64,000 nucleotides of DNA, taken from positions 49,325-113,324 of the forward strand of contig DHUL01000037.1 in assembly GCA_002409145.1 (NCBI GenBank), written 5' to 3'. The position numbers and the translations under genes were made by a program. A model generated the notes under the pieces. It saw nothing but the letters and a program-made list of their open reading frames with translations, was not told where the DNA came from and searched no databases. Each line of letters opens with the position of its first letter. The stretch's first letter is position 1. This document shows, piece by piece, positions 1 through 14,140 of the stretch. This DNA comes from Bacteroidales bacterium UBA5235 (GTDB lineage Bacteria > Bacteroidota > Bacteroidia > Bacteroidales > VadinHA17).

Positions 1-563
1 AAGAGGTTCTGGTCGGGGCCGCCGCCGCGTACGTAGATGCCGGTGGATCCTTCGGTGCCCGACTGCACACCGGGGAGTAGCTGTATCACCTTGAGCACGT
101 CGGCTTCGCCGAAGATCACCGGCAGCTTGAGGAATTTCTCCACCGGGACGTCTATCATGCTCATCTGGGTGCTTTCGATTTTTGCCCTTCGGCCGGAGGC
201 CGTAACTGTTACTGCAGCTATCTCGCTTGATGACATGACCAGGCTGAAGTTGATAACCGTGTCACGGGAGAGTTGCACGACAAGGGTGTCAGGGCTGTAG
301 CCCAGGTAGGAGACGATAAGTTCAGCCTTTCCCTCCTGGAGTGGAAGGCTGTAGAAACCGTAGCTGTTGGTTGTGGTTCCGGCGAAGGAGGCTCTTTCAT
401 AGACAGTGGCGTCGATCATTCGTTCTCCGCTGCCTGCATCGGTGACGAAGCCGCTGACGGTGATCCTTGCAGCTGCGGCAGAAGAGCCGGTTGCACTTCG
501 CTGCGCCTCAAGGGACAGGCTCAGGGCGAGTGCTGTAAAAGTGAGAGAGAGCAGGATGCGCAT
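1..563 (-). CDS. TonB-dependent receptor, N-terminal part (gene runs off the window start)
   Basis: Absent from the ORF track because it is open at the window edge. ATG at 563-561 (rc). Hand translation gives signal peptide MRILLSLTFTALALSLSLEAQ, then ITVSGFVTDAGSGE (carboxypeptidase-regulatory-like domain), then FGEADVLKVIQLLPGVQSGTEGSTGIYVRGGGPDQNL (TonB-dependent receptor plug motif). Confidence 0.8.
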   Translation of the reverse strand, partial: MRILLSLTFTALALSLSLEAQRSATGSSAAAARITVSGFVTDAGSGERMIDATVYERASFAGTTTNSYGFYSLPLQEGKAELIVSYLGYSPDTLVVQLSRDTVINFSLVMSSSEIAAVTVTASGRRAKIESTQMSMIDVPVEKFLKLPVIFGEADVLKVIQLLPGVQSGTEGSTGIYVRGGGPDQNL

Positions 564-568
564 ATGTA

Positions 569-979
569 TCAGAAGCCGGTTGTCTCTTTCAGGAATTTCC
601 GGACGGCCCGTTTCTCATCGAACTCAAGCATCCCCGTCGGGAGCCGGATGATACGGCCGTTTTTCATCACGATGCGGACAAAGTTTTCGTCGGCCAGGAT
701 CTCATCGATCTCATGTATCGGCAGGATTATCCTCATAGGTTTTGTGTACCATCTTATTGTCAGCACACCTTTTTCTACTGTCAGTCTGTTGACCAGGGTA
801 CCGAAGTTGAGGCTCAGGAATGCCAGCCCCAGCAGAAGCAAGGCTACAATCTGGATCCAGAATGACCACTCATTTTTATCACCTGTAATGATTATTACGA
901 TAACCATCACCAGGCAGACGATTCCCAGTGAGCGGTAGATCCGTTCATAAAGTGAGTTCCGGAGTACGAGCTGTTTCAT
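569..979 (-). CDS. small membrane protein, two N-terminal TM helices plus a bacterial-PH-like C-terminal domain (paralog 1)
   Basis: 136-aa ORF with ATG start. Hydrophobic N-terminal half, then LTIRWYTK...IDEI...FVRIVMKNGRIIRL...RKFLKETTGF. Stop lies 5 nt upstream of the TonB-receptor start. Domain call rests on topology and pattern only. Confidence 0.55.
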   Translation of the reverse strand: MKQLVLRNSLYERIYRSLGIVCLVMVIVIIITGDKNEWSFWIQIVALLLLGLAFLSLNFGTLVNRLTVEKGVLTIRWYTKPMRIILPIHEIDEILADENFVRIVMKNGRIIRLPTGMLEFDEKRAVRKFLKETTGF

Positions 980-1102
980 GACAAGAGATTTATAAATGTA
1001 AATATAGGAAATTCCTTGAACAGGCCGAAGGAGTGATACGGTGTCAGTCCTGTCATTGGAACAAGCTGGCGATATTATGAGTTATCCCGCAGGGATGGTG
1101 CC

Positions 1103-1513
1103 TTACAGTCCTGTACTCTCCTTAAGGAATTTGCGTGCTGCTTTGCGTTTGTCGGCGTCCATGAGTTTTACGTGCAGGCGGATGGTGCGGCCGTCTTTCA
1201 TGATTATGCGTATAAATCGCTTGTCCTCAGTAATCTCTGCGATCTGCTCAATAGGGAGATGTTTTTTAAAGATTTTTGTGTTCCATCTGATTGTCAGTAT
1301 TCCGTGATCAGCAGTGAGCCGGTTGATAATGGCGCCGAAAATCAGTGTAAAGAAGACTACGGCAGCCAGAATAAAAACCACCACAAGAATCCAGAAGACA
1401 GCTCTTTTAGGACTGTGCATGAAAAGTTGGAGGCCCACAGCGAAGAGCAGCAGTCCTCCCAGGAAGCGGAAGAGATATTCCTGAGCCTTGTCGCGAATCA
1501 CCAGTTGATTCAT
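1103..1513 (-). CDS. small membrane protein, bacterial-PH-like (paralog 2 of 569..979)
   Basis: Same 136-aa length and gap-free alignment to the neighbour, roughly 40 percent identical by eye. Shared blocks: NRLT..G.LTIRW.TK, LPI..I.EI, F.RI.MK.GR.IRL, RKFLKE.TG. Confidence 0.55.
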   Translation of the reverse strand: MNQLVIRDKAQEYLFRFLGGLLLFAVGLQLFMHSPKRAVFWILVVVFILAAVVFFTLIFGAIINRLTADHGILTIRWNTKIFKKHLPIEQIAEITEDKRFIRIIMKDGRTIRLHVKLMDADKRKAARKFLKESTGL

Positions 1514-1620
1514 CAGGGATTAGTTTATTGCATCGCTAAAGTTATAAAAATCCGCAGAATTGCTGACGGGAGCACGCATTGAATGAGTTTTGTTTTTATG
1601 ATCACGTTGTCATTCCGGCA

Positions 1621-1815
1621 TTACTTTCTATACTGCCTGATCTGGAAGAAGAAAGAGAGACATGTGAGCGCTGCCACAACTGCCATGAGTATCATGGCTA
1701 ATCTGTGATAGGGACCGGTCGGCGGAAGAATCGCCATAATGACTGTTATAACCAGGGTGATCAGGCTGATTATGAATCCTGCCTTCAGCAACTTTATTCT
1801 TTTAATTGAGCTCAA
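1621..1815 (-). CDS. 2-TM mini-protein with a basic C-terminus
   Basis: 64-aa ORF. The track start is TTG (rc of caa at 1813-1815), so the start is uncertain. Two hydrophobic helices, tail QIRQYRK. Confidence 0.35.
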   Translation of the reverse strand: MSSIKRIKLLKAGFIISLITLVITVIMAILPPTGPYHRLAMILMAVVAALTCLSFFFQIRQYRK

Positions 1816-1950
1816 GACAAGGCCCTCCCCTCACTGTTGCCGGTTTACCGAAGCGTAACTTCCTCTTTGTTTTTCATACTGAACATATATGCAATGAATA
1901 GATTCCCGATCGAAACATGCTGGCGGGCTTCCCCGGGTTAGTGGGCCGGA

Positions 1951-2421
1951 TCAGGCTGGCTGGCCCTGTTGGCTGTACACCAGCAGAGTTATGACACCGA
2001 CGATTATGAAAGCAGCGCATCTGATGGCAGTGGCCCTGTAGAAGCGGTGCCTTTCGCTGGAGTTTCTGATAAGGGCAAGAAGCAGCATCAGTGCTGTGAC
2101 CACCAGGCCACAGTTGATGAGGATTCTTGTCATAGGATAATTGTTCAGGGCAAATAATAATCCCAAAGTCAGTTGAGACAGTCCAAGCCCGGTTCCTGCT
2201 GCAACAACGATTCTCCAGGGTCCCAGACCCTTGTAGGATTCGGAATTGAATATTTTCCGAATCGGAATTTCGTTAAAGAGGGCGAATCCAAGGTAGAGGT
2301 AGACGGTACCCAGCACCACCAGGAAGACAGATGTGATTAGCGAATGGAAAGGCACGTTGAGCAATGCCATCAGGATGCCGATTATGGCTCCGGCGATGAG
2401 GATTAGTTCGGGCTTCTTCAT
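1951..2421 (-). CDS. polytopic membrane protein, unknown function
   Basis: 156-aa ORF with ATG start and about 5 hydrophobic segments. No motif recognised. Confidence 0.55.
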   Translation of the reverse strand: MKKPELILIAGAIIGILMALLNVPFHSLITSVFLVVLGTVYLYLGFALFNEIPIRKIFNSESYKGLGPWRIVVAAGTGLGLSQLTLGLLFALNNYPMTRILINCGLVVTALMLLLALIRNSSERHRFYRATAIRCAAFIIVGVITLLVYSQQGQPA

Positions 2422-2575
2422 ACTTTTGGATTAGAGACATTTGACTTTCGATGATAATTTGGTAATCTGGTACTAAGTTATTATATTATTGTTATCAAAT
2501 CAGTTACAGCCAATATTCTTCTGCGATGAAATTAATAAACCTGCCAACACTTTGTACAGACTCTTTAGTAAGGTT

Positions 2576-3058
2576 TTAAACAAACATATTATATAATGAG
2601 GCCAGGAAATTATCCATGGCGTGAAGAATGAAAACCAGGATTATTGCATCTTCCTTTCTGTATCTTCCAAGGTAATATGCTAAGGCATAAATTATTCCAA
2701 CCAAAAACGTAATTAATACATAAAGAAAACTGTATGTATGATTCAATGCAAACGCCAGAGAAGAAGCTAATACTGCAATCCAGATGTTCTTCCATGGTCT
2801 TTTAACGATCTTACAGATAATTTCAATTATTAATGATTGAAACAAAAGCGTTTCTATGATTGGAACAGCTATAACCGCAATTAACAGATCAATAACGATA
2901 TTATCTGTTTTCCAGTAACCTGCCGACTCAGGTTCCGGTAAAAATGTGGTTATTGCAGCCAGCAATAAAGTAGGAACCAGGAATATTAAAATATATTTAA
3001 TAGTCGGAACCTTAATCAAATAACTGACTGAAAAGATATGTATTGAACCTTTATGCAA
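2576..3058 (-). CDS. CPBP/Abi family intramembrane protease-like protein (bacteriocin self-immunity type)
   Basis: 160 aa, polytopic. Motif 2 is FALNH and motif 3 is LHAMDN. Motif 1 is degenerate (IETLLFQ instead of EExxxR). The track start is TTG, so the start is uncertain. Confidence 0.6.
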   Translation of the reverse strand: MHKGSIHIFSVSYLIKVPTIKYILIFLVPTLLLAAITTFLPEPESAGYWKTDNIVIDLLIAVIAVPIIETLLFQSLIIEIICKIVKRPWKNIWIAVLASSLAFALNHTYSFLYVLITFLVGIIYALAYYLGRYRKEDAIILVFILHAMDNFLASLYNMFV

Positions 3059-3111
3059 CTATTATGAATTTAGCATTACATAGTCCTTATGACCGTTATT
3101 AAGCAGAATTG

Positions 3112-3486
3112 TCATCCTTTTTTGAAGAAAATGCTAACAACCATGAGATTTATTCCGATGGCTATCACTGTGCCAATCAGAGTACCCAGTATATCATGGA
3201 AATCGAAAGTAGCCCATGGAAGAAATATCTGAATAAACTCATAGGCTGCTAAACCCAAACCAACCGACAAGATTCCCCAAATCCTGGGTTTGATTGTTCT
3301 GTAGTCTTTGAACCAAATGAATAACGAAGAAATAGTCAATACTCCACCAGTATTAGCTGAAGTATCATGAATGAAACCCATAGTAGCATTGTGATGAGGA
3401 AGAAACCTCATCAGTGTAACTCCCAGGGAGGTCAGGATAAAGAAAGCAATAAACAGGAATAAATCAGTGTTCCTTGGATCAGTCAT
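3112..3486 (-). CDS. VanZ-like membrane protein
   Basis: Track ORF 3112..3519 begins at TTG. I prefer the in-frame ATG at 3486 (MTDPRNTD...). Four hydrophobic segments. YEFIQIFLPWATFDFHDILGTLIG resembles the VanZ E..Q.F.P....D..D....G pattern. Confidence 0.5.
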   Translation of the reverse strand: MTDPRNTDLFLFIAFFILTSLGVTLMRFLPHHNATMGFIHDTSANTGGVLTISSLFIWFKDYRTIKPRIWGILSVGLGLAAYEFIQIFLPWATFDFHDILGTLIGTVIAIGINLMVVSIFFKKG

Positions 3487-3549
3487 TATTATGTAAGTGT
3501 TTAATCTTAAGTAGCACAAACTTTCAAGTTTTCCGGAAAATGAAAAGAA

Positions 3550-3738
3550 TCATTCTTTCTTTCTCTTGCGGGACAGGGAAATCCATCCTAAAACAACCAC
3601 TGATCCGGTAGCATAAAGCAGCACAGATGTTGCCTTAGAGAGGTTAGCCATGTCACTTAATAACCAATAGTAAGTCATCATGATGACATACAACAGGGAA
3701 ATCAGGGCAAGTGCAATTTTAAGAACTGTTCTGTTCAT
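3550..3738 (-). CDS. 2-TM mini-protein with a polybasic tail
   Basis: Track ORF begins at TTG (3753). The in-frame ATG at 3738 gives 62 aa, MNRTVLKIALALISLLYV...LSRKRKKE. Confidence 0.45.
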   Translation of the reverse strand: MNRTVLKIALALISLLYVIMMTYYWLLSDMANLSKATSVLLYATGSVVVLGWISLSRKRKKE

Positions 3739-4178
3739 GTTGTATAAATTCAAGTCGATTTATGCAGGAGAAAATCGATCATCTACAGATTCAGTATGTT
3801 AAAGATAAGAATTTATCACGTTTGAGAGCAAAGATTGCCGCTGATCGGACTTCTTCTGTCACATTACTGGTAAGCTATAATTGGTAGAGGTTTTCCTGCT
3901 GTGTTCCTGCTCCCTGGTTTTATCCAGATTGGTTTTATAATAGGCTTCACAGAAGATAGCTTTAAAACTCCGGGTGTTCTATTTATAGTTGGCGAATAAC
4001 TGGATCAGAATCAAAACAACCACTCCTCAGTGGAACGGTCAGATCTCTTTTAGTAATTTTTTTTGAATAGATGTTTTCATGAAAGGAGCAATAAACCAAG
4101 TGAAGAGTGAATATACACTATGCCAATAGGAAGATAGACATTAGGCACTATTCGATGGCAAGTTATTCTGTACTAAAC

Positions 4179-4370
4179 CTATTCCCTATTTCTCCTTTTT
4201 ACCCTTCTTCTATACTCAATAAGTAATGAATTTATCAATCCTCCAACCAAAAGAATAATAAACAAAATATTATCAGTTTTAGTCAGGTCCTCAATAAAGA
4301 TCAACTTGTAAAGAATATAGACTGCCAAAGCAACTAAGATGACAAATACAATTGTAGTAACAGTTCTCAT
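4179..4370 (-). CDS. 2-TM mini-protein with a polybasic tail
   Basis: 63 aa with ATG start. Two hydrophobic helices, tail EYRRRVKRRNRE. Lies immediately downstream of the two GG-leader peptide genes. Confidence 0.5.
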   Translation of the reverse strand: MRTVTTIVFVILVALAVYILYKLIFIEDLTKTDNILFIILLVGGLINSLLIEYRRRVKRRNRE

Positions 4371-4483
4371 TTCAGTAAAATAACTGAAGAAAGCCTACTT
4401 TGTTTTTACCACAGAATTTGGGTTTTAACGAAATAACCCTAATGTTCCTAAATGACAAAAACACTTAATAAACCCTCTTTTAG

Positions 4484-4672
4484 TTAATCTAGTGTGGCTG
4501 CCTTGTAAATTATACAGCCTATTCCTGCAGCCTTTACTATGACATAACCCACCCCAGATAATGCCAAGAGGGGAGAGATAATATTAGCAACACCTACTGC
4601 AACACAAAAGCCATCCCAAAAGTTACCTCCTTGAGTTTCACTTAACTCATCATATGTTAGAATCCTTATCAT
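4484..4672 (-). CDS. double-glycine-leader peptide precursor B (bacteriocin-like)
   Basis: 62 aa. Leader MIRILTYDELSETQGG (DELSxxxGG type). The 46-aa core NFWDGFCVAVGV...GIGCIIYKAATLD has 2 Cys. ATG start. Sits 11 nt after precursor A and downstream of the C39 ABC exporter. Confidence 0.7.
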   Translation of the reverse strand: MIRILTYDELSETQGGNFWDGFCVAVGVANIISPLLALSGVGYVIVKAAGIGCIIYKAATLD

Positions 4673-4683
4673 AATTCTTAGTA

Positions 4684-4890
4684 TTATTCTACGACAATTC
4701 CTTCACTTTCCCAATATTTTTTCGCAGCAAGGGCTGCTGCACAACCAACTGCAGGTGCAGCTGCTAAAGGTGCCAAAACAAACCCAAAGCAAGCAATCAT
4801 AGCAGCTGAACCGCATAGTAATCCAGTTAGAGTGCTGAATTTTAATCCACCATTTACTGTTTCCATTTGACACGTCTGAAGTTCTTTCAT
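4684..4890 (-). CDS. double-glycine-leader peptide precursor A (bacteriocin-like)
   Basis: 68 aa. Leader MKELQTCQMETVNGG has hydrophobic residues at -4 (V), -7 (M), -12 (L) and -15 (M) relative to the GG. The 53-aa hydrophobic core has 3 Cys. ATG start. Confidence 0.7.
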   Translation of the reverse strand: MKELQTCQMETVNGGLKFSTLTGLLCGSAAMIACFGFVLAPLAAAPAVGCAAALAAKKYWESEGIVVE

Positions 4891-5080
4891 AGCGAGACAA
4901 TTTTAACTTTCACCTACTCTATTATTGGCTTTTCGGTTTCTGCCTGCAGACGAAAAATGTTAAATTCCATCTGCATTATCAAAGTAAAAACAGTGCAGTC
5001 CAATAATACAGGATTGGCGTATTTTTCTTCCTGCCGAACCTGGTTTTTGTTTGCTGATAATACACCTGGCGGTTGAAAAT

Positions 5081-7276
5081 CTAAGCCTTAATCTGCTTTG
5101 CCAGATCAAATTCCTCCCAAAACCTTTTGTAAAGGTTCTCCTTCATCAACAGCTCGCTATGGGTTCCTGAAGCTGTTATGGTCCCTCCCTCAAGAAGGTA
5201 AATCCTGTCACATATTTTCCTGATAATATTAATTCTGTGAGTAACGAGCAGTATTCCAACTGAAGCCCTGATCCTCATCAGAATTTTCAATATGAGAGAT
5301 TCTGTATCCCGGTCCATTCCTGAGGTGCCTTCGTCAATGATCAAAATATCAGGATCATTGAACAATGTTCGCATGAATGCAATTACTTGTTTTTGACCCC
5401 CTGACAGCTTGACACCTTCTTCTCCGGTTAATGTGGCAAATCCAAGTGGCAAACTATTAACGAATTGTTCAAGTCCGAATTCAGCGGTCAACCGTACAAG
5501 TCTGGCAATTTTGGTCTCATCAGGATCAGGAATAATGTTTTCTAGGACTGTCCCATTGAAAATATGAACATCCTGAGGGATAAGACCAATCGACTTGCGC
5601 CATTTAGCCATAGGTATTTCCTGATGTGCAGAATGATCATTCACTGTTATAACACCAGATTCAGGGTCATAAAAGCGCATCAGGATATTGACCAGAGTGC
5701 TTTTCCCCGAACCGGATTCGCCAACCAATGCGACAATCCTGCCCTTCCTGATCTCAAAACCTATATCCTTTAACAGCAGCTTTTGTCCAGGGAATCGAAA
5801 TGAAATACCCTTTAATCCTATACCGACAATATCAGGAAAATCTTCCTTTAGATCTGCAGGGATTTCCTCCGCCTTCAACTGGGTAAATTCAAACATCCTT
5901 TCAAGCGCCACCTTCGCCTCACTCAAAGGAATGGAAACGAGGGCCAGGTTTAAAACTGAAGGCAGCAGGGTCGAACTAAGTGTAATGATAGCCATCAGTT
6001 CGCCCTGGGTCATCCTCGTCCCCATAACTTCAAGCGATGTGAATAACAGTAATCCCATCAGATATAAGGTCCCCGCCAGGTTGGTAACTATGCCCAGCTT
6101 AATTTTAATCTTGCCAAGAGAGAATGCCCTCTCCTGAAACAAACTGAAAATTGATTTATTCCTGCCCTCATAAAAACTCTGCCACCCCATGCTCTTAATC
6201 TCCGTAATTCCCTTTAAAGTGCTGATGAAGTTACTTTCGTTGAGCGCATAACCCGCCATCAGATCCTGCTGGGATTTTATCACTGGTTTATTCCATTTGT
6301 GAACCAGGAGAAAAAACAATGGGACTGCTGTAGTCGAGATTGTTCCGGCGATCGTAGAGTAAGACCAAATCATTGCCAACGTTATCAAAACAATCAGACA
6401 ATCTATTACATAAACACTGACCACTTCGGAAATAACCCGCTGAATCCTGAGAGTATCATTAAGACGGGCAACCATGTCCCCCGTTTTACGTGAATCGAAG
6501 AATGGCTTTGGCAAACCAAGCAGCGATCTGTAGAATCCATCAACGACCCTGATATTGTATGTCTTGCCCTGGGATAATAACGTCGTCTGACGGATAGCGG
6601 TAAGTACCACCCTCACAGCAAGAAGCATGAACACTAAAACGATTGAAACGATCAGCATCCGATTATTGCCGGATGGCAAGATATCATCCAGTAATTTCTG
6701 TGTAAAGACTGCCATTACAACTCCAAGCCCGGAAACGAGAATGCCAACAAAAAAACTAGCAGTCAACAATTCAATATCGGGTTTGACAGTTTCAGCTATC
6801 CACTGACGCTTCCTTCTTATCGTTGTTTCATGATAGGTAAAATTCTTCCCTGGAGCAACTGCAAGGCATTTATGGCTCAACCAGATTTTTTCAACTTCAT
6901 CCCGGGTTCTTAAAACAAGTCCCCGGGCCGGATCCCAGATTATGAATCGGTTATCTATATAACCATACGATACAACATAATGCTCGTATCCCTTTCCCGG
7001 GGTTACGTGAAGGATCAGAATCCCGGTATACTCAGTAATATTTTTTATAGTAGCCTCATAGCCTGTAGCTACCATACCTGATGACTTGGCAGCCTGATAC
7101 AAACCCAGCATGGTTGTCCCTGACTGGCTTGTGCCGCTCAATAGGCGTATCTGATCAATAGTTGAATCCCCTCCAGAATACCTTATGATTGATGCAAGGC
7201 ATGCTGCTCCACAGTCTGTAGAGTCGTGCTGCAACAATGAGACCTCCTTAATCCTTTTTAGATTAATCGCTGTCAT
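5081..7276 (-). CDS. peptidase-C39-containing ABC transporter (PCAT; GG-leader peptide processing and export)
   Basis: 731 aa. C39 catalytic Cys in HDSTDCGAACLASII, with His/Asp context EHYVVSYG...IWDPARG. Six-helix TMD. Walker A GESGSGKST, signature LSGGQKQ, Walker B ILIIDEGTS. Confidence 0.92.
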   Translation of the reverse strand: MTAINLKRIKEVSLLQHDSTDCGAACLASIIRYSGGDSTIDQIRLLSGTSQSGTTMLGLYQAAKSSGMVATGYEATIKNITEYTGILILHVTPGKGYEHYVVSYGYIDNRFIIWDPARGLVLRTRDEVEKIWLSHKCLAVAPGKNFTYHETTIRRKRQWIAETVKPDIELLTASFFVGILVSGLGVVMAVFTQKLLDDILPSGNNRMLIVSIVLVFMLLAVRVVLTAIRQTTLLSQGKTYNIRVVDGFYRSLLGLPKPFFDSRKTGDMVARLNDTLRIQRVISEVVSVYVIDCLIVLITLAMIWSYSTIAGTISTTAVPLFFLLVHKWNKPVIKSQQDLMAGYALNESNFISTLKGITEIKSMGWQSFYEGRNKSIFSLFQERAFSLGKIKIKLGIVTNLAGTLYLMGLLLFTSLEVMGTRMTQGELMAIITLSSTLLPSVLNLALVSIPLSEAKVALERMFEFTQLKAEEIPADLKEDFPDIVGIGLKGISFRFPGQKLLLKDIGFEIRKGRIVALVGESGSGKSTLVNILMRFYDPESGVITVNDHSAHQEIPMAKWRKSIGLIPQDVHIFNGTVLENIIPDPDETKIARLVRLTAEFGLEQFVNSLPLGFATLTGEEGVKLSGGQKQVIAFMRTLFNDPDILIIDEGTSGMDRDTESLILKILMRIRASVGILLVTHRINIIRKICDRIYLLEGGTITASGTHSELLMKENLYKRFWEEFDLAKQIKA

Positions 7277-7784
7277 ACAAATACTTCATTATTGTTTCCG
7301 GCTTAACCGAGCCTCTGAATATCTTAACAAGCCGAAGACTGTCGTTGTATATAAAATTGGCCGGAATGATATTAGCTCCAAACAATTCACTCAATTTTAA
7401 ATCAGGATCATGTATTATATGTAGATGCGATGTATCTATGATTTTGAAATCCTTAAGAAAAGATCTGATCTCAGATTTTCCAGCGTAACTTACCAGGATG
7501 ATTCTGGAATTGCAGCTTTGGGAGTCATTGGATATAAGAGAGGAAATTTCATACCTGCAATGATCACACTCCGGGTGAAAGAAAGTGATCAGTAAGGGTC
7601 CCGATGTAAGCCAGGAAGTATTGAATTCTTCCCCATTGATATCAGTCAATACTAAATCCGGCAGAATCCTGATCCTTTCCAATGCGCCTTCCACCCGTGA
7701 CTTGCGTGTGAGAATAGCTACAATCAACAATACAATAATGATTATCGGGATCAACAGTAAGAATTTCGCAATTCTCCGTTTCAT
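7263..7784 (-). CDS. membrane-anchored thioredoxin-fold thiol-disulfide oxidoreductase (TlpA/ResA-like)
   Basis: 173 aa. N-terminal anchor FLLLIPIIIIVLLIVAIL. CxxC in FFHPECDHCRYE. Its 3' end overlaps the PCAT start by 14 nt. Confidence 0.75.
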   Translation of the reverse strand: MKRRIAKFLLLIPIIIIVLLIVAILTRKSRVEGALERIRILPDLVLTDINGEEFNTSWLTSGPLLITFFHPECDHCRYEISSLISNDSQSCNSRIILVSYAGKSEIRSFLKDFKIIDTSHLHIIHDPDLKLSELFGANIIPANFIYNDSLRLVKIFRGSVKPETIMKYLYDSD

Positions 7785-8437
7785 GGCATTGCATCAATTG
7801 TTAAAAACATAATAACCGCGATCCATACTGCGACAGCGGGAACATAGGTCGATAAAACAACCTTATCCGCCGCCCCCTTCCTTATTGATCCGATTCTGGA
7901 TAGGCCGAATGCAAGCAGCAATACATAAAGTGCCTGAAAAATGTTAACGCTCTGCAGGGGATAGATCCAATAGGATGCGACTTCTGACCGGCTGAAAAGA
8001 TTAATCAATGACAGCGGATAAAAGAAACTAATATCTTCAAGTGTGTAATTACCAGCAAAAAAAATAAACCATAACAGTTTCATCACCGAAGCCAAAATGA
8101 ACACTATTTCGCACAAGACGACTACTTTAAAGATCTTACCTAGAGTAATCTCCTTGTGCAGATCGCTGAAGAATGCACCTATAAATAAAACCACACTCAA
8201 GGCAGAAAATTTGAGAAGTAGCAATATAGGTGTAATTGCATAGGTCACCCAGGAATATGATTTCATCCTGTAAAAGAGCTCCATCGATCGTTCGTATGTC
8301 AGCTGCTCGCTGTAGGTATTGAAAAAGACGATTTCATCAATCAGAAGTGTTTGAGAAGCGATAAGGAAAAGTATGTCTATCATTACTATCCCGGAAAACA
8401 GCTTCCACCCTCTTAAAGACAAGGCTCTGGCAATCAT
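7781..8437 (-). CDS. polytopic membrane protein of unknown function, coupled to the redoxin gene
   Basis: 218 aa with ATG start and about 5-6 hydrophobic segments. ATGA 4-nt overlap with the downstream redoxin gene. No motif recognised. Confidence 0.6.
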   Translation of the reverse strand: MIARALSLRGWKLFSGIVMIDILFLIASQTLLIDEIVFFNTYSEQLTYERSMELFYRMKSYSWVTYAITPILLLLKFSALSVVLFIGAFFSDLHKEITLGKIFKVVVLCEIVFILASVMKLLWFIFFAGNYTLEDISFFYPLSLINLFSRSEVASYWIYPLQSVNIFQALYVLLLAFGLSRIGSIRKGAADKVVLSTYVPAVAVWIAVIMFLTIDAMP

Positions 8438-8512
8438 ACCTTCATTATTAAGAATCTATCTTCAAACCAAGGATATGCACTTCAGTAATGCGCATTTATA
8501 GTCTTAACTTAA

Positions 8513-8758
8513 TTAATGTCCCTCCATAACCTTCTCTACTTTTATTACTATCCTTCTGGAATCACCATAGTAGTAGGATTCCCGAACATTGGAATACCTG
8601 ATATCAACACCCATCCCTTTCATCTCCTGAAGGGTTTCAAACAGCATTGAACGACTTAGATTCATCTTGTACGCAAACTCCTCTGGCGGACCGGTTGCCT
8701 TCATGGCAATAAGAGAGTCCATCCGTTGCAAACGTGCAATGTATTTTGACAACGACAT
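8513..8758 (-). CDS. small HTH-domain protein (putative locus regulator)
   Basis: Track ORF starts at TTG (8788). The in-frame ATG at 8758 gives 81 aa, MSLSKYIARLQRMDSLIAMKATGPPEEFAYKMNLSRSMLFETLQEMKGMG. This is the wHTH-like pattern of small Bacteroidota HTH proteins found next to peptide clusters. Confidence 0.5.
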   Translation of the reverse strand: MSLSKYIARLQRMDSLIAMKATGPPEEFAYKMNLSRSMLFETLQEMKGMGVDIRYSNVRESYYYGDSRRIVIKVEKVMEGH

Positions 8759-8785
8759 GATTACTATTTTAGAAATGCAGCACTT

Positions 8786-8793
8786 CAAATTTA
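8786..8793 (-). promoter_or_regulatory. candidate Bacteroidota -7 promoter box TAAATTTG
   Basis: The rc of caaattta is an exact match to TAnnTTTG. It ends 28 nt upstream of the HTH ATG at 8758. Confidence 0.3.
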
Positions 8794-8996
8794 AGAAGGG
8801 TTTTTAAGAATGTCAACACTGCTTGCAAAATATTTTGATATATGGTTCTTCGAGATGACTTTTTATAACAATCATGGTTCCTGCCGACTGAGGTCATAAT
8901 CAAGATCCTGACTTGAGAATATCTTAGATTTACTTGACATGAGCAGTCAAATGGCGTAAATTTATATGGCATTACTGGGGAGAAACCTAAAAATCA

Positions 8997-9443
8997 ATGC
9001 CTATGAAAAAGACTGCCGTTCTCTGCTCACTGCTCCTGATTATGCTCGTGGCATGCAAGCAGGAGCCACTAAATCCTGTCATTGGCGCATGGGACCTGTT
9101 CTATGCCAAACAGGTGGTAAATGACTCGGTCGTAGCCATATACCCGGACACCTACCAGGGAAGCCAGGTAAAAATGTGGTGCAATAACTACTGGATGTTC
9201 GTCGGGCAATATAAACAGGATACCATCATATCAGAAAGCTATGGCGGCGGATCCTATACGCTCGAGGGAATCGTCTATAAAGAAACCATCGAGTACCACG
9301 TCACCGGTGATTTCATCGGGAAAACCTTAAGAATGAGAATCGTTGTCGCCAATGATACCCTGATACAGGTGTGGCCGGCCGACGAAACAGGTGAAGTGGA
9401 TAAAAGCAATTACTGGTCCGAAAAATACGTCAGGGTGAAATAG
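8997..9443 (+). CDS. lipoprotein, unknown function
   Basis: 148 aa. Signal peptide plus lipobox LLIMLVAC. The second ATG at 9003 (MKKTAV...) may be the true start. Confidence 0.6.
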   Translation: MPMKKTAVLCSLLLIMLVACKQEPLNPVIGAWDLFYAKQVVNDSVVAIYPDTYQGSQVKMWCNNYWMFVGQYKQDTIISESYGGGSYTLEGIVYKETIEYHVTGDFIGKTLRMRIVVANDTLIQVWPADETGEVDKSNYWSEKYVRVK

Positions 9444-9527
9444 GGGTGTCAGTGACCCGTCAGGCGGGACAATGCTGGACGATCTGTGATCAACGCCGTA
9501 ATTATTGTCACTTGGACTACAATTCTT

Positions 9528-9594
9528 AAAGGCCTGCGGCCTATATACATCTTTTGGCATTCTGTGCTGCAATGCTGAAAGGCCTACGGCCTAT
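9528..9594. repeat. two copies of a 17-nt hairpin motif (aaaggccTGCggcctat / aaaggccTACggcctat) exactly 50 nt apart
   Basis: Copies at 9528-9544 and 9578-9594, 16/17 identical. Each has a 5-7 bp stem (aggcc/ggcct) and a 3-nt loop. They lie between convergent genes, and copy 2 overlaps the stop codon of 9591..10118. Confidence 0.35.
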
Positions 9595-10118
9595 TTGGCC
9601 AGGAGCTTTACCAGCTTTTCATGCAACTGTACTGACCAGGTCTCTATTTCCGAATGACCCCGGTTCTCGGCTTCACGAAGTAACCCAAGCAACAGCCGCA
9701 GTTTGAATTTTGACCGCTCACCGGGCTGCGCTGCCTCCCTGCTGTCAGCCTCACCACTGAAGAATCCTTCACTAACAGTATGAACCATACCCCTTACATG
9801 AGAAGTGTATTGCATGATCACCATTCGCGACTCAGCCCCTCTATCTGTACTGAGCGACGGAATGACAGTAAAAATGGCAAAGGGCTTCTTGCCCAACACC
9901 GACTGGTTCCGCCTGACAAACTCCATCGCCTCCGGAACCCATCCTCCACCCTGCTCCTGGCACCCGGCAATCACAGCCGAAAAAACTTTTACCCCTGACA
10001 CCCCGCTCATAGGCCTGAGCGTCACCTCGGCACCCAGGCCGGTCAACACCCGGGCCACTCGCTCAGCCACACTGGCTGCCAGCCCGGACGTACCTGCATG
10101 AGTTACAAGAATCTTCAT
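9591..10118 (-). CDS. flavodoxin-fold protein (HemG/flavodoxin_5-like)
   Basis: 175 aa. MKILVTHAGTSGLAASVAERVARVL...FSAVIAGC...KPFAIFTV follows the flavodoxin-like beta-alpha pattern. ATG start. Confidence 0.55.
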   Translation of the reverse strand: MKILVTHAGTSGLAASVAERVARVLTGLGAEVTLRPMSGVSGVKVFSAVIAGCQEQGGGWVPEAMEFVRRNQSVLGKKPFAIFTVIPSLSTDRGAESRMVIMQYTSHVRGMVHTVSEGFFSGEADSREAAQPGERSKFKLRLLLGLLREAENRGHSEIETWSVQLHEKLVKLLAK

Positions 10119-10237
10119 CGCTCTGGAACAAGGTTTGGTCTCCCAAAATTAATAAAAAGTGAACAATCTTTAACCGGGGATCCCGGCCGGAACTACCCCG
10201 CTAAGCGTTTTCTTGCTATTTTTGCAAAAAGAACACA

Positions 10238-10573
10238 ATGGCTATCCCGAGCTTCTTCAAACAGAACAAACCCCGCGGCTTCAACTACAAGCCCCGGTAC
10301 TATGATCCGGTCAAGGAGGAACTGGAACAGAGACGCAAGACATGGGAGAAAGAAAAGAGAGATAGCGGGGAAAGGCAGAATAATAGTGAGCCCTCCCCCG
10401 CTGAAGCTGCGGAGGGAACCTCCCGTCAGCCCTACCGCTCAAGGATCATGCGCGGTGATATGAAAAACTACTTTAACCACAGGCAGGAGAAAGTGCAGAA
10501 ACAGACCACCATCAGACTAATTGTGATCATAATTATCCTTGCCTTCGTAGTCTATCTTTACCTCCGTTTTTAA
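10238..10573 (+). CDS. hypothetical protein with a C-terminal TM anchor
   Basis: 111 aa. Charged, low-complexity N-terminal part and C-terminal helix LIVIIIILAFVVYLYL. Sits 9 nt upstream of mutL. Confidence 0.5.
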   Translation: MAIPSFFKQNKPRGFNYKPRYYDPVKEELEQRRKTWEKEKRDSGERQNNSEPSPAEAAEGTSRQPYRSRIMRGDMKNYFNHRQEKVQKQTTIRLIVIIIILAFVVYLYLRF

Positions 10574-10582
10574 TCGCCCCGG

Positions 10583-12439
10583 ATGAGTGACATTATAAAG
10601 CTTCTGCCCGACTCCGTCGCCAACCAGATAGCGGCAGGTGAAGTCATCCAGCGTCCGGCATCAGTGGTCAAGGAGTTGACGGAGAACGCCGTTGACGCAG
10701 GGGCTACAGAAATAAGCGTGGTCATCCGCGATGCCGGCCGTACTCTCGTACAGGTGATTGACAACGGATGCGGCATGAGCGAGACTGACGCCCGCCTCTC
10801 ATTCGAGAGACACGCCACCTCAAAGATCTCATCAGCCGATGATCTTTTTATCATAACTACCAAAGGATTCCGGGGTGAGGCGCTCGCCTCAATAGCAGCC
10901 GTCTCAATGACCGAGTTGCGCACAAGACGCGAAGAAGACGAAGCAGGAACACTGGTTGAAATAAATAACTCGAGGGTCACAAGACAGGAACCATGTTCAT
11001 GCGCTGCAGGATCAGTATTCAGCGTCAGGAACCTCTTTTACAATGTCCCCGCCCGCCGAAAATTCCTGAAGTCGGACACAACCGAGTTCCGGCATATCAT
11101 CACCGAGTTCCAGCGTGTAGCCCTTGCCCACCCGGAGATAAGGTTCAACCTTACCCACAATGACCAGGAGATTTACCGCCTTCCGGCGGGAAACCATCGT
11201 CAGCGGATAGCAGGGCTGTTCGGAAAACATTACAACCAAAACCTGGTCAGTGTGGAGACCTCCACCTCCATTGTGTCAGTAAGCGGGTTTGCGGGGAAGC
11301 CCGAAAACGCCCGCCGCTCAGCCGGTGAACAGTTTTTCTTCGTGAACAACAGGTTCATCCGGCATCCCTATCTGCATCGCGCTGTGCTGGAAGCCTACCA
11401 GGGTCTCCTTCCTCCCGATACCCTCCCGGCATATTTCATATATATGATCGCTGACCCGGCAACAATAGATGTGAACATCCACCCCACCAAAACCGAGGTC
11501 AAGTTCGAGGACGAGAGGTCTGTCTGGCAGATCATGCTGGCTTCCGTCCGTGAGGCTCTGGGCCGGTTCAACGTGGTGCCGTCGCTTGACTTCGGTCCCG
11601 AGGGCGCCGTGGATATCCCGGTCATCATGGGCAACACCCCTCCGCCACCGCTGCCGCAGATAGAGGTTGACCACACCTTCAATCCGTTCGAAGGCACTGA
11701 ATACCAGAGACCCGGAATAAAATGGAAATGGGACGCTGAGCGTAATCCTCCACGCGACTGGGAGTCGCTTTTCACCATCACCACACGCGGAAAGAGTGAG
11801 AGTGAGAGTGAGATTGAGGCTGAGAGCGGAAAAAGGATATCATCAGGCCCGTCAGATGATGAAGGGCACGGAGCAGCCCAGCGCCGTTTTTTCCAGGTAA
11901 AAAACCGCTACATCATGTGCCCTGTGATCTCCGGAATAATGATGATTGACCAGAGAAGGGCCCACGAGAGAGTGCTCTACGAGAGATACCTTACCTCACT
12001 CGGTGACGGTCCGAGACCTGCACAGGTATCGCTTTTCCCTGTAGAGGCGGAACTTAATCCGGGCGATCTGGTGATCATTGAAGAGATAAGCGACCAGCTC
12101 AGGATACTCGGATTTGAGATAAAAACCGGGACGCAAGGCAGGGTCACAATCAGCGGTCATCCCGCTGACAGCCGCAATGCAAACCCCCTGGCAATGCTCG
12201 AAACTATCATCGCCGAATACAAGCACTCGATGGGAGACCCGGCTATAGGTGCACGCGAACGGATCGCCCTCTCCATGGCCAGGGCTTCAGCTATCCAGTA
12301 TGGCACCCCGCTGACTCACACAGAGATGGAGGAACTATTTGACATGCTTTTCGCCTGCGCTATGCCAAACTACTCTCCCTCAGGCAAAACGGTGATGAAC
12401 ATCATCACCCTCGAGGAGCTTGACCGGAGATTCAGCTGA
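10583..12439 (+). CDS. mutL: DNA mismatch repair protein MutL
   Basis: 618 aa. GHKL ATPase motifs VVKELTENAVDAGAT, DNGCGM and GFRGEALASI. DVNIHPTKTEV. C-terminal dimerisation region. Confidence 0.95.
   Translation: MSDIIKLLPDSVANQIAAGEVIQRPASVVKELTENAVDAGATEISVVIRDAGRTLVQVIDNGCGMSETDARLSFERHATSKISSADDLFIITTKGFRGEALASIAAVSMTELRTRREEDEAGTLVEINNSRVTRQEPCSCAAGSVFSVRNLFYNVPARRKFLKSDTTEFRHIITEFQRVALAHPEIRFNLTHNDQEIYRLPAGNHRQRIAGLFGKHYNQNLVSVETSTSIVSVSGFAGKPENARRSAGEQFFFVNNRFIRHPYLHRAVLEAYQGLLPPDTLPAYFIYMIADPATIDVNIHPTKTEVKFEDERSVWQIMLASVREALGRFNVVPSLDFGPEGAVDIPVIMGNTPPPPLPQIEVDHTFNPFEGTEYQRPGIKWKWDAERNPPRDWESLFTITTRGKSESESEIEAESGKRISSGPSDDEGHGAAQRRFFQVKNRYIMCPVISGIMMIDQRRAHERVLYERYLTSLGDGPRPAQVSLFPVEAELNPGDLVIIEEISDQLRILGFEIKTGTQGRVTISGHPADSRNANPLAMLETIIAEYKHSMGDPAIGARERIALSMARASAIQYGTPLTHTEMEELFDMLFACAMPNYSPSGKTVMNIITLEELDRRFS
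11794..11823 (+). repeat. hexanucleotide tandem repeat (GAGTGA)x3 plus two degenerate units inside the mutL linker
   Basis: Read directly as gagtga gagtga gagtga gattga ggctga. Encodes SESESEIEAE in the disordered linker. Confidence 0.8.
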
Positions 12440-12491
12440 TATTTGGTCAGAATGGCTAAATTTGCGCTTTGAAACACGTGAGAACAATAAG

Positions 12492-13226
12492 ATGAACAGA
12501 ATACTTTCAGGGACCCCTCCGGTGGTGAAAAACCTCATCATCATCAATGTGGTGATGCTCCTGCTGTATGAACTCCTCAAGCTGACAACAGGCATCAACC
12601 TGAACGGCATCCTGGGGCTCTATTTCCCAAAATCGGAATTCTTCCGTTCATGGCAGATTGTCACACACATGTTTATGCATGGCGGGTTTGTGCACCTGCT
12701 TTTCAACATGTTTGCCCTGTGGATGTTCGGGAGGATACTCGAACAGGTATGGGGGCCAAAGAGGTTCCTCCTCTATTACCTGGTGACGGGACTGGGCGCA
12801 GCCTTCTTCTTTGAACTGGTACAGTGGTACCAGTACAACAAGGTGATGGGAATCCTCTCACCTGAGCAGCTTCAGTATGTCTATGACGCCGGAAGCAATG
12901 CCGTCAGCCAGGGCAAAAACTTCACAGACCCGGATATGGGGAGGCTGAATTCAATACTTAATGTTCCCGTTGTGGGAGCATCAGGAGCTGTCTACGGAGT
13001 GCTTCTGGCCTTCGGGGTGCTCTTCCCCAACACGCAGCTGATGTTCATATTTCCTCCCATACCTGTCAAGGCGAAATATGTTGTCATAGGGTATGCAGCC
13101 ATAGAGCTCTACCTGGCTATCACAAGCCCGGGAAGCAGCATAGCCCATACGGCACACCTCGGCGGTATGCTCTTTGGCTATATCCTGATAAGATACTGGA
13201 GGAAGACCACTAAAACCCTTTACTGA
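12492..13226 (+). CDS. rhomboid family intramembrane serine protease
   Basis: The track ORF starts at 12420, inside mutL. ATG 12492 (MNRILSG...) is preferred. Motifs: HMFMHGGFVHLLFNM, catalytic GASGAVYG, AHLGG. Confidence 0.85.
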   Translation: MNRILSGTPPVVKNLIIINVVMLLLYELLKLTTGINLNGILGLYFPKSEFFRSWQIVTHMFMHGGFVHLLFNMFALWMFGRILEQVWGPKRFLLYYLVTGLGAAFFFELVQWYQYNKVMGILSPEQLQYVYDAGSNAVSQGKNFTDPDMGRLNSILNVPVVGASGAVYGVLLAFGVLFPNTQLMFIFPPIPVKAKYVVIGYAAIELYLAITSPGSSIAHTAHLGGMLFGYILIRYWRKTTKTLY

Positions 13227-14140
13227 TGAGCATCTGGGACGAGATAAAGGGTTCATTCAAACATGGCACAGCCCTGACAAGGCTGATGTACATCAACGGC
13301 GCCGTATTCCTGTTTATAAAGATTATTGAAGTAATAGGGGTACTTACATCCAGCCCCGGCCTGGCTACGGCAGTAATATCGAACCTGGCTGTCCCGGCCT
13401 CCACCACCGCCCTTGCCCTTAAGCCATGGACACCCGTCACCTACATGTTCACTCACCAGGGATTTATCCACCTGCTCTTTAACCTGTTGTGGCTATGGTG
13501 GTTCGGGAAAATTTTCCTGGCATATCTCGATCAGCGGAAGCTGGTGGCACTCTATATCATGGGAGGTCTCGCCGGAGCACTTCTTTATGTAATTGTCTTC
13601 AATATCTTCCCTGCCTTCGCGTCAGCGGTGAACGTCTCAATTGCACTGGGTGCATCCGCCTCGGTGATGGCATTGGTTATAGGCACAGCCGTCTACCTGC
13701 CCGATCTCGAGCTGCACCTCCTCTTTTTCGGGAGGGTGAAGCTGAAATACCTGGCACTGGTAACCTTCCTGATAACCTCTGTGTTTGATTTCTCGGTGAA
13801 CACCGGAGGCAAGATCGCCCATATCGGCGGTGCACTGATGGGATTAGCCTACGGACAGGGTCTGAGAAATGGCAGGGATTTTGGAATATGGTTAAACAGG
13901 ATCCTCGACTTTTTTGTTAGTCTGTTCAAACCGGGGAAAAGGCTCAGGGTGAAATACAAGAAAACCGGAACCGCCTTCAAAGCACAAAAGACAAAGACTG
14001 ACCACGAATACAACTCAGCAAAAGCCGAAAGGCAGAAGGAGATAGACCATATACTCGACAAGATTTCGAAAGGAGGTTATGACAGTCTCACGAGGGAAGA
14101 AAAAGCAATCCTCTTCAGCGAGAGCCAGAAAAAAGGATAG
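13226..14140 (+). CDS. rhomboid family intramembrane serine protease with a lysine-rich cytosolic tail
   Basis: 304 aa. Motifs YMFTHQGFIHLLFNL, GASASVMA and AHIGGAL. The start overlaps the previous stop. About 90-aa charged C-terminal extension. Confidence 0.85.
   Translation: MSIWDEIKGSFKHGTALTRLMYINGAVFLFIKIIEVIGVLTSSPGLATAVISNLAVPASTTALALKPWTPVTYMFTHQGFIHLLFNLLWLWWFGKIFLAYLDQRKLVALYIMGGLAGALLYVIVFNIFPAFASAVNVSIALGASASVMALVIGTAVYLPDLELHLLFFGRVKLKYLALVTFLITSVFDFSVNTGGKIAHIGGALMGLAYGQGLRNGRDFGIWLNRILDFFVSLFKPGKRLRVKYKKTGTAFKAQKTKTDHEYNSAKAERQKEIDHILDKISKGGYDSLTREEKAILFSESQKKG

Follow-up and report, generated by a model that had tools for sequence, protein, structure and literature searches.

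The two precursor genes

Two tandem genes in a stretch of DNA from Bacteroidales bacterium UBA5235 (GenBank assembly GCA_002409145.1, contig DHUL01000037.1, positions 49,325 to 113,324 of the forward strand; the whole stretch of 64,000 nucleotides (nt) is hereafter the window) encode short precursor peptides, A and B, with double-glycine (GG) leaders. Close to them are genes for a peptidase-containing ABC (ATP-binding cassette) transporter (PCAT), a thiol-disulfide oxidoreductase (redoxin), a membrane protein with about five transmembrane (TM) segments, and a small basic protein with two TM segments; we interpret A, B, and the small protein as a probable bacteriocin cassette and the other three as its export module. 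Coordinates are those of the window unless a related locus is named; loci fetched for comparison carry the designations L001, L002, and so on.

Precursor A (4684..4890, −) has 68 residues, that is, a 15-residue leader (4846..4890; MKELQTCQMETVNGG) and a 53-residue core with a bracket of C11 and C35 and a variable C19; precursor B (4484..4672, −) has 62 residues, with a 16-residue leader (4625..4672; MIRILTYDELSETQGG) and a 46-residue core bracketed by C7 and C37. The original prediction described two tandem open reading frames (ORFs) with GG leaders at this site, and a re-reading of the window confirmed their positions and translations, the gap of 11 nt between A and B (4673..4683), the three core cysteines of A (11, 19, and 35) with 3 Lys against 3 Glu, and the two of B (7 and 37) with 2 Lys against 2 Asp. 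The net charge of both cores is 0, the computed isoelectric points (pI) are 6.3 for A and 6.1 for B, and the grand averages of hydropathy (GRAVY) are 1.14 and 1.28. In leader A the canonical hydrophobic positions are indeed occupied (M/L/M/V at −15/−12/−7/−4); leader B matches the classical LSxxELxxIxGG except for an invariant Thr, which is non-hydrophobic, at −4. A permissive leader pattern applied to all six frames of the 64-kb window detected no GG-leader ORF besides these two.

Both cores had been read as helix-Pro-helix hairpins rich in small-xxx-small motifs. The motifs are kept among the homologues, with invariant positions G8/(G or A)12, A14/A18, G21/A25, and A28/A32 in A and A13/S17 and S17/A21 in B. 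The hairpin is moderately supported for B, for which the AlphaFold2 model is all-helical (helices 14–31, 33–39, and 41–61; predicted local distance difference test (pLDDT) 70.6), and is modeled only at low confidence for A (pLDDT 48.4). Both peptides match the bacteriocin family PF10439 below its gathering threshold (GA) of 27.1 bits (A, 14.7 bits; B, 17.4 bits), and neither matches TIGR03949 (lactobin A/cerein 7B). Profiles of A and B retrieved nothing meaningful from all chains in the PDB, and a Foldseek search of the PDB with the model of B gave no match with E<1.

Conservation and choice of start site

A search of 5.8 billion clustered proteins identified seven homologous clusters for A and nine for B; all are metagenomic and none carries a functional name, two being labeled ‘hypothetical protein’. 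In the alignments, the core cysteines (among close homologues) and many Gly, Ala, and Pro residues are invariant, and the leader cysteine of A varies. The L021 homologue has Phe in place of C19 of A, so the conserved pairs are C11/C35 of A and C7/C37 of B. The earlier suggestion that all five cysteines pair logically with the redoxin therefore fails for the odd C19, which is dispensable in L021; judged from these alignments, the five cysteines would not need a bond between the two peptides. Codon comparisons among four loci gave ratios of nonsynonymous to synonymous difference (pN/pS) of 0.17–0.44 at pS of 0.4–0.8 for A and B, indicating that both genes are under purifying selection.

The homologues of A keep an MK-L start 15 residues ahead of the GG. 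The JGI and ENA gene calls begin A at the internal Met9, which gives a 7-residue ‘leader’, or omit A altogether; such miscalled A-type genes are found in the window (4684..4890), L001, L002, and L128. On sequence grounds the 15-residue leader, not that of the Met9 start, is taken to be the real one because the M-K-x-L start is conserved, its distance to a conserved upstream element is fixed (vide infra), and it agrees with the leader logo from 30 first-position peptides of related loci. Because public gene callers miss or truncate A-type genes, protein catalogues under-represent this peptide family.

The export module

The gene upstream of A encodes a 731-residue PCAT (5081..7276, −) with Peptidase_C39 (PF03412), ABC_membrane, and ABC_tran domains. 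It has strong matches to TIGR01193 and TIGR03796, below their equivalog cut-offs, and aligns from end to end with PCAT1 (4ry2; E 3e-103); its C39 sites (Q16, C22, H99, and D115), Walker A motif at 519, and LSGGQ motif at 624 are intact. We regard A and B as genuine double-glycine precursors, predicted to be served by this neighboring PCAT.

The next gene upstream encodes a membrane-anchored thiol-disulfide oxidoreductase of the ResA/TlpA fold (7263..7784, −) with an N-terminal hydrophobic anchor and the motif C73-D-H-C76; it matches PF00578 (AhpC-TSA; 32 bits, GA 26), NF002854 (ResA; E 2e-7), and the PDB structure of ResA (3c73; E 1e-7). Among 83 tblastn matches in related loci, a count that includes duplicate fetches of one contig for some loci, the motif is C-[DE]-H-C in 76, C-D-Y-C in five, and C-[GL]-H-C in two. 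A His or Tyr ahead of the second Cys is the pattern of DsbA (CPHC), protein disulfide isomerase (PDI; CGHC), and DsbC; the reductases ResA and TlpA have C-x-P-C. The motif of this redoxin thus fits an oxidase or isomerase, and the protein is presumed to be the periplasmic disulfide oxidase for the A/B cargo, that is, for the peptides exported by the module. The original prediction had also named the redoxin as the disulfide partner of the peptides; this is plausible for a protein encoded in the same cluster, but the two are not adjacent as had been described, because the 2.2-kb exporter gene lies between the redoxin gene and A.

The third gene of the module encodes a 218-residue membrane protein (7781..8437, −), an export-module accessory with about five hydrophobic segments by hydropathy analysis and without a Pfam or NCBIfam family. 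It has 351 matches in the 5.8-billion-protein database, the best 120 of the 351 all being at least 63% identical to it, and its profile detects 935 clusters at 50% identity (E≤1e-3); these matches, with ten distant representatives looked up, are only metagenome proteins without names. In the loci compared it is always encoded directly upstream of the redoxin and the PCAT; a scan of IMG/VR with its profile gave no matches. We considered the 5-TM protein as a DsbB/VKOR-like re-oxidase of the redoxin and ruled this out, its single Cys being non-conserved.

No ORF resembling HlyD-type membrane-fusion proteins (MFPs) or TolC was recognized among the ORFs of window positions 1..14000 or when ten proteins of the cluster were compared with Pfam and NCBIfam, and no MFP/TolC-type Pfam family is listed among the called genes of the syntenic loci. 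Neither the window locus nor the syntenic loci contain a recognizable radical-SAM, LanB/C/M, YcaO, or other peptide-modification gene.

A conserved 5′ leader precedes the cassette

The region between the PCAT gene and A contains three elements. A consensus scan identified a promoter-like box (4975..5002, −), TGGACT-16 nt-GATAAT within TTGGACTGC.CTGTTTTTA.TTTGATA, that is kept ahead of the first cargo gene whatever the cargo type. Just after the conserved TTTTTA.TTTGATA box is a hairpin or palindrome, H1 (4945..4975, −; alignment A6, columns 21–52; UGCAGAUGGAA-9 nt-UUUCGUCUGCA), and directly 3′ of H1 is a match to Rfam RF02914, the ‘DUF805b RNA’, an orphan cis-regulatory motif (4911..4946, −; score 40.4 bits, gathering score 35.6, E 5e-8) located 21 nt upstream of the start codon of A. 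The minimum free energy (MFE) fold of 4885..5010 (−) has −29.6 kcal/mol (z −2.4), and RNAalifold on 20 loci gives seven pairs in H1, several with compensatory change (e.g., one pair as AU 6, CG 5, UA 5). The RF02914 model excludes H1, which may be a 5′-terminal stem of the mRNA or an operator.

In 13 of 14 related loci, DUF805b ends 19–25 nt upstream of the first cargo ATG regardless of the cargo (e.g., L001 9723-9757, L008 11496-11530, L010 11793-11827, L021 3745-3779, and L092 9217-9251, among others). We considered whether DUF805b marks bacteriocin cargo specifically or an integron-like array; both are ruled out, since it also precedes unrelated genes. An exact-pattern scan of IMG/VR located it on 35 contigs, once or twice per locus, before unrelated genes without a Pfam family; the distance to the gene is mostly 15–29 nt, with one ATG at 73 nt and one contig that ended before any ORF. 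On this evidence DUF805b seems to be a general 5′ leader element, shared by Bacteroidota and their mobile DNA. We found no text on DUF805b in the literature.

The immunity candidate and the pairing of A with B

The gene after B encodes a 63-residue, basic (pI 10.3) two-TM protein (4179..4370, −), a candidate immunity protein. All of the A/B loci (the window, L001, L002, L021, L128, L129, and L130) have such a gene, encoding 62–65 residues, after B, and the proteins from the window, L001, L002, and L021 are 44–79% identical (BLASTP); in the loci examined downstream, this type of gene was not found behind other cargo types. This protein, which the original prediction had overlooked, is likely to be the immunity protein of the A/B pair. 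A stem-loop followed by a T-run (4017..4041, −), a pattern match from a consensus scan, resembles a terminator at the end of the A-B-immunity unit.

Profile searches of every ORF in all fetched loci detected A only where B is present and, likewise, B never without A. The A-B-immunity triad occurs in seven independent loci (the window, L001, L002, L021/22, L128, L129, and L130; L003 and L004 are L001 and L002 refetched) and, with frameshifts, in L005. In these loci, which span 53–87% identity, A and B are always adjacent, with a stop-to-start gap of 11–27 nt. In L005 (MAG CAWDHN010000012.1, 4200-8200, MAG denoting a metagenome-assembled genome), the TM protein, redoxin, exporter, A, B, and immunity genes contain many frameshifts, which reflect either errors of long-read sequencing or decay of the locus. 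A and B are not paralogues; profile-profile comparison ruled this out, with homology confined to the leader. The two peptides may be expressed in equimolar amounts, as had been suggested from their spacing.

The cargo family in relatives

In a collection of one genome per species (185,579 species), B is found in three species only, all represented by uncultured Rikenellaceae MAGs; set against the 935 clusters and 351 matches of the TM family, this shows that the machinery is far more common than the A/B cargo. The relatives have the same three-gene module in the same chromosomal slot, with mutL and rhomboid genes on one side and a TonB-dependent receptor gene on the other; the cargo differs. 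In a survey of 80 metagenome loci harvested for this purpose and the other fetched loci, about 25 other cargo types are encoded behind the same module in the same slot (e.g., L006 11605-11820, L008 11551-11751, L010 11849-12055, L037 6140, L056 3537, L066 5711, and L073 7962, among others).

The leaders of these cargos vary little from the pattern M-K-[TEK]-L-x-x-x-Q-M-E-x-[IVL]-x-G-G; of the 30 first-position peptides, 29 have Q at −8 and all have M at −7. The hydrophobic cores have GRAVY of 0.4–1.6, Gly plus Ala contents of 26–41%, net charges of −3 to +2, and one Cys near each end. The neutrality that had been presented as an oddity of the A/B pair is, then, the norm across the whole cargo family. 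In the four-Cys cargo types the cysteines are placed symmetrically, at 5/45 and 20/29, the pattern expected of nested disulfides in a helical hairpin. Like A and B, four of 10 sibling cargos match PF10439 below threshold, and three siblings also match TIGR03949; the best sibling scores are 23.6 bits for PF10439 (GA 27.1) and 18.0 bits for TIGR03949 (cut-off 21.5). The remaining family matches of the siblings are few, weak, and scattered.

The DNA downstream of the cargo was examined in 17 loci; there, most cargo types have behind them one or more membrane-protein genes of their own, which co-vary with the cargo. For example, the FNTFWRSAC cargo type is followed by a 56-residue protein and the MPCA/MPCS type by a multi-TM protein of 226–228 residues; in L008 an ABC ATPase gene lies beyond the latter. 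An orphan gene (5789) for the 56-residue immunity-like protein, without the matching cargo, is present in L021, an A/B locus. The slot behaves as a hotspot for the swapping of cassettes.

When plasmids were searched with the TM protein (tblastn), only Flammeovirga was found, the nearest relative of the module that bears a name: the Flammeovirga pectinis plasmid NZ_CP034564.1 (L092 5911-9432) encodes the TM protein, redoxin, and peptidase-ABC protein in the same order, so the module type is present in a second class of the phylum. The cargo in L092 has the same leader and is hydrophilic and Cys-bracketed (MKKLTFNQMGKINGG, then GTCHYQ...NMVC). The L092 module adjoins genes of the GLPGLI, LanC, and glycosyltransferase families, and the strain is a cultured member of the Cytophagales through which the module might be approached experimentally. 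In L012, a cargo-like peptide is encoded at +177 after the exporter gene (MKKLSLNEMSVISAD, then SKLGCALAIAG...IIEACT); its leader is that of the family but ends in S-A-D without Gly-Gly, and the peptide has either an unusual cleavage site or is a decaying copy.

Comparison with known bacteriocin systems

Bacteroidetocins, Bacteroidota bacteriocins proposed as class IIf (Coyne et al. 2019, PMC6671954; Matano et al. 2021, PMC8546649), are the closest in export machinery, a precedent that the original prediction did not recognize. Necessary and sufficient for their production are the peptide itself, whose GG leader has 15–16 residues and which contains two or more Cys, a 5-TM protein, a peptidase-ABC protein, and a thiol oxidoreductase, the last of which is proposed to stand in for the missing Dsb machinery (PMC6671954). 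Nineteen bacteroidetocin regions have been published. The four class II peptide bacteriocins of Bacteroidota that have been tested so far are all bacteroidetocins (PMC8546649). The A/B locus has the same three gene types, likened here by gene type and description, not by sequence; its GG leaders have 15 (A) and 16 (B) residues, and both cores contain at least two Cys, presumed to be disulfide-bonded. It also shares the phylum, the location in a low-GC region, and the lack of a membrane-fusion or TolC gene in the locus.

The differences lie mostly in the cargo. Bacteroidetocins are single peptides of 42 residues with net charges of +2 to +6 and only 12–13 hydrophobic residues, whereas here there is a pair with cores of 53 and 46 residues, net charges of 0, and GRAVY above 1.1. 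Bacteroidetocins have no immunity gene; a two-TM immunity-like gene that co-varies with the cargo follows B. The known bacteroidetocins target the outer-membrane protein BamA. Their cargo gene lies between those for the TM protein and the redoxin, whereas A and B are downstream of the exporter, and they are found on integrative and conjugative elements or in mobile regions of gut Bacteroides, whereas the A/B locus occupies a fixed slot in environmental Rikenellaceae-like MAGs.

The gene layout of the A/B locus is that of class IIb bacteriocins (e.g., lactococcin G and plantaricin EF/JK; lactacin F and brochocin-C fall in PF10439), in which a single operon holds two distinct, adjacent GG-leader genes and, behind them, one gene for a small membrane immunity protein; at the A/B locus a promoter-like box lies ahead of the three genes and a terminator-like site behind them. 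A dedicated peptidase-ABC exporter and helical cores of 30–55 residues with GxxxG-like motifs are further likenesses. Class IIb peptides, however, are cationic, usually Cys-free, and made by Firmicutes; A and B have net charges of 0, are Cys-bracketed, and are encoded with a presumed periplasmic oxidase in a diderm.

The class II microcins of Enterobacteriaceae (e.g., microcin V; Parker et al. 2025, PMC12219008) also have a Gram-negative producer, a GG/GA leader of about 15 residues cut by a PCAT, hydrophobic Gly/Ala-rich peptides that are often non-cationic and sometimes disulfide-bonded, and a small inner-membrane immunity protein encoded beside the toxin. They differ in being single peptides with another leader consensus and without a dedicated redoxin or 5-TM gene, and in their need for a membrane-fusion protein and TolC, neither of which was recognized at the A/B locus.

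The Blp/thermophilin loci of Streptococcus thermophilus are comparable as class II GG-bacteriocin loci with their own thiol-disulfide oxidoreductase for a bacteriocin disulfide, and multi-peptide loci occur among them; they differ in the Gram-positive producer, in proteins unrelated in sequence, and in regulation by quorum-sensing peptides. These loci, with the thiol-disulfide oxidase BlpG, are discussed in PMC10059821.

By analogy, then, the A/B locus appears bacteroidetocin-like at the export and oxidation steps, and its cargo and immunity protein resemble those of class IIb bacteriocins or class II microcins. From large-scale mining, Bacteroidota are already predicted to encode class II bacteriocins in the thousands (PMC12648112). 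This kind of bacteriocin is known; the A/B cargo type and the A/B/immunity cassette are undescribed.

A probable two-peptide bacteriocin

Cargo that is hypervariable while leader and machinery stay constant, cognate small membrane proteins, and orphaned immunity genes are, in combination, the signature of bacteriocin loci, and we consider it likely that the A-B locus is a toxin plus immunity cassette. The original prediction left the choice between a two-peptide toxin and a non-toxin cargo; the toxin is the better reading, and the non-toxin cargo is disfavored by the co-varying membrane-protein genes and their orphan copies. Because A and B co-occur strictly, share one immunity-like gene, and have conserved small-xxx-small motifs, the best reading of the toxin is as a two-peptide one. 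We conclude that A and B are probably the precursors of an unmodified, disulfide-stapled bacteriocin of class II type, most likely with two peptides, for which the 63-residue protein would confer immunity. Whether the two act in obligate synergy is evenly balanced in our judgment.

The pathway would be as follows. A, B, and the immunity gene would be expressed as one transcription unit from their own promoter and 5′ leader (H1 and DUF805b), which are conserved and to which we ascribe this function. By homology with PCAT1, the C39 domain of the PCAT (Q16/C22/H99/D115) would bind the amphipathic leaders and cleave after Gly-Gly, and its ABC part would carry the cores across the inner membrane. 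By analogy with the bacteroidetocins, the ResA-fold redoxin would then oxidize C11-C35 of A and C7-C37 of B so that each becomes a stapled helical hairpin, with the 5-TM protein as a required accessory. The released peptides would insert into the membranes of related Bacteroidales and jointly permeabilize them, perhaps by packing of their helices through the small-xxx-small motifs, and the two-TM immunity protein would shield the producer.

Several observations weigh against this interpretation. Neutral charge and extreme hydrophobicity are atypical of class IIb peptides, and the exit of A and B from the producer and their passage through the outer membrane of the target are puzzling, with no MFP/TolC-like gene within about 8 kb. 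The AlphaFold2 model of A is too uncertain for use, every match of A and B to curated families (Pfam and NCBIfam) is sub-threshold, and no solved bacteriocin resembled either peptide by fold or sequence in the PDB profile searches and the Foldseek search with B. The close homologues are all metagenome-derived. The cores of A and B are unrelated to each other, their homology being limited to the leader, and a distant relative of B, the L006-type cargo, is a single peptide (B profile, E 1.5e-6; BLASTP, 24% identity, E 2e-4), so B might be active alone.

The last two points bear on the alternative in which A and B each act as an independent one-peptide bacteriocin, sharing a promoter, an exporter, and perhaps a cross-protective immunity protein, without synergy. 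In its favor, single peptides occupy most cargo slots behind the module, and one of them, the L006-type cargo, is weakly detected by the B profile; the cores are unrelated, and candidates for a second immunity protein are encoded downstream (3550..3753, 3112..3519, and 2576..3058). Against this, A and B are inseparable and adjacent in seven independent loci that span 53–87% identity, the same single gene for 62–65 residues always follows them, and both have conserved small-xxx-small motifs; we therefore judge independent action to be unlikely, while giving it more weight than any other alternative.

That A and B are exported but not toxins, that is, signaling peptides or hydrophobic components for the producer's own envelope or vesicles, we consider very improbable. 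PCATs also export pheromones such as ComC, and ComA is among the structural matches of this PCAT; neutral charge, too, is unusual among bacteriocins. Cores of 46–53 residues with GRAVY above 1.1 are, however, unlike known pheromones, and no sensor kinase or response regulator is present in the locus. The hypervariable cargo behind a constant leader and the co-varying membrane-protein genes with their orphan copies also speak for toxins, and the weak family matches are mostly to bacteriocin models.

Still less probable is that A and B are precursors of peptides made on ribosomes and then modified post-translationally (RiPPs) that receive thioether or other crosslinks beyond disulfides before export. 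GG leaders and PCATs do serve lanthipeptides and other RiPPs, a LanC-family gene lies beside the Flammeovirga module, and one sibling cargo has a weak match to the lichenicidin family (E 0.038); yet with no modification gene recognized in the window locus or the syntenic loci, the redoxin is the sole conserved gene of the tailoring type.

The idea that the A and B ORFs are chance reading frames of intergenic DNA, for which one could cite that gene callers miss or shorten A in several assemblies, is already refuted at the sequence level by amino acids conserved despite saturated synonymous change (pN/pS 0.17–0.44), by the invariant Cys, Gly, and Pro, and by the fixed position behind the conserved 5′ leader.

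Taken with the sibling cargos, a two-peptide bacteriocin at this locus invites a wider proposal, that A/B is a single cassette from a large and so far undescribed class of bacteriocins in Bacteroidota, near-neutral hydrophobic helical hairpins with an N-to-C disulfide bracket, in which toxin/immunity cassettes are exchanged behind a constant promoter and 5′ untranslated region (H1 and DUF805b) beside a fixed bacteroidetocin-type module, the module acting as a chromosomal ‘expression slot’ for interchangeable weapons. We put this forward tentatively, as somewhat less than an even chance. If it is true, DUF805b gains its first functional context.

Significance

The same type of export module as in bacteroidetocins here serves a different cargo, that is, peptides that are very hydrophobic, neutral, disulfide-bracketed, accompanied by dedicated immunity-like genes, and, in this locus, paired. 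If A and B are active, two-peptide bacteriocins would be extended to a diderm phylum, the question of how such peptides cross two outer membranes would arise, and the many natural cargo/immunity variants would offer a means of targeting, with a narrow spectrum, the Bacteroidales of sludge, sediment, and digester communities. The wider cargo family and the cassette-swapping slot are of more interest than the single A/B pair.

Neighboring genes and the low-GC island

The export module, the cargo genes, and the membrane-protein genes downstream of them are contained in a low-GC island (2400..9000) with a GC content of 33–44% against 50–55% in the flanks; the minimum (33–38%) is over the cargo/immunity portion. 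Directly upstream of the module is a gene for a small protein of 81 residues (8513..8758, −; ATG at MSLSKY) that is weakly helix-turn-helix (HTH)-like and may be a regulator: its sole domain match is a weak one to the BirA N-terminal HTH (E 0.028), and it has no relative in the PDB. A gene for 81–92 residues is also found directly upstream of the module in L001, L002, L006, L008, and L010.

Downstream of the cassette, the island encodes a small two-TM protein (3550..3753, −), a weakly VanZ-like membrane protein (3112..3519, −), and a homologue of the CPBP/Rce1-like (Abi-type) intramembrane proteases (2576..3058, −; PF02517, 47.5 bits). All three might be additional or orphaned immunity genes. 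Genes of the CPBP type recur downstream of the cargo in L014 and L021, and the homologue in the window may provide accessory immunity, its membership in the system being uncertain.

Two tandem paralogous genes (569..979, −, and 1103..1513, −) encode proteins of 136 residues, each with a membrane part at the N-terminus and a soluble part at the C-terminus; in every syntenic locus this pair is kept, bordering the variable region.

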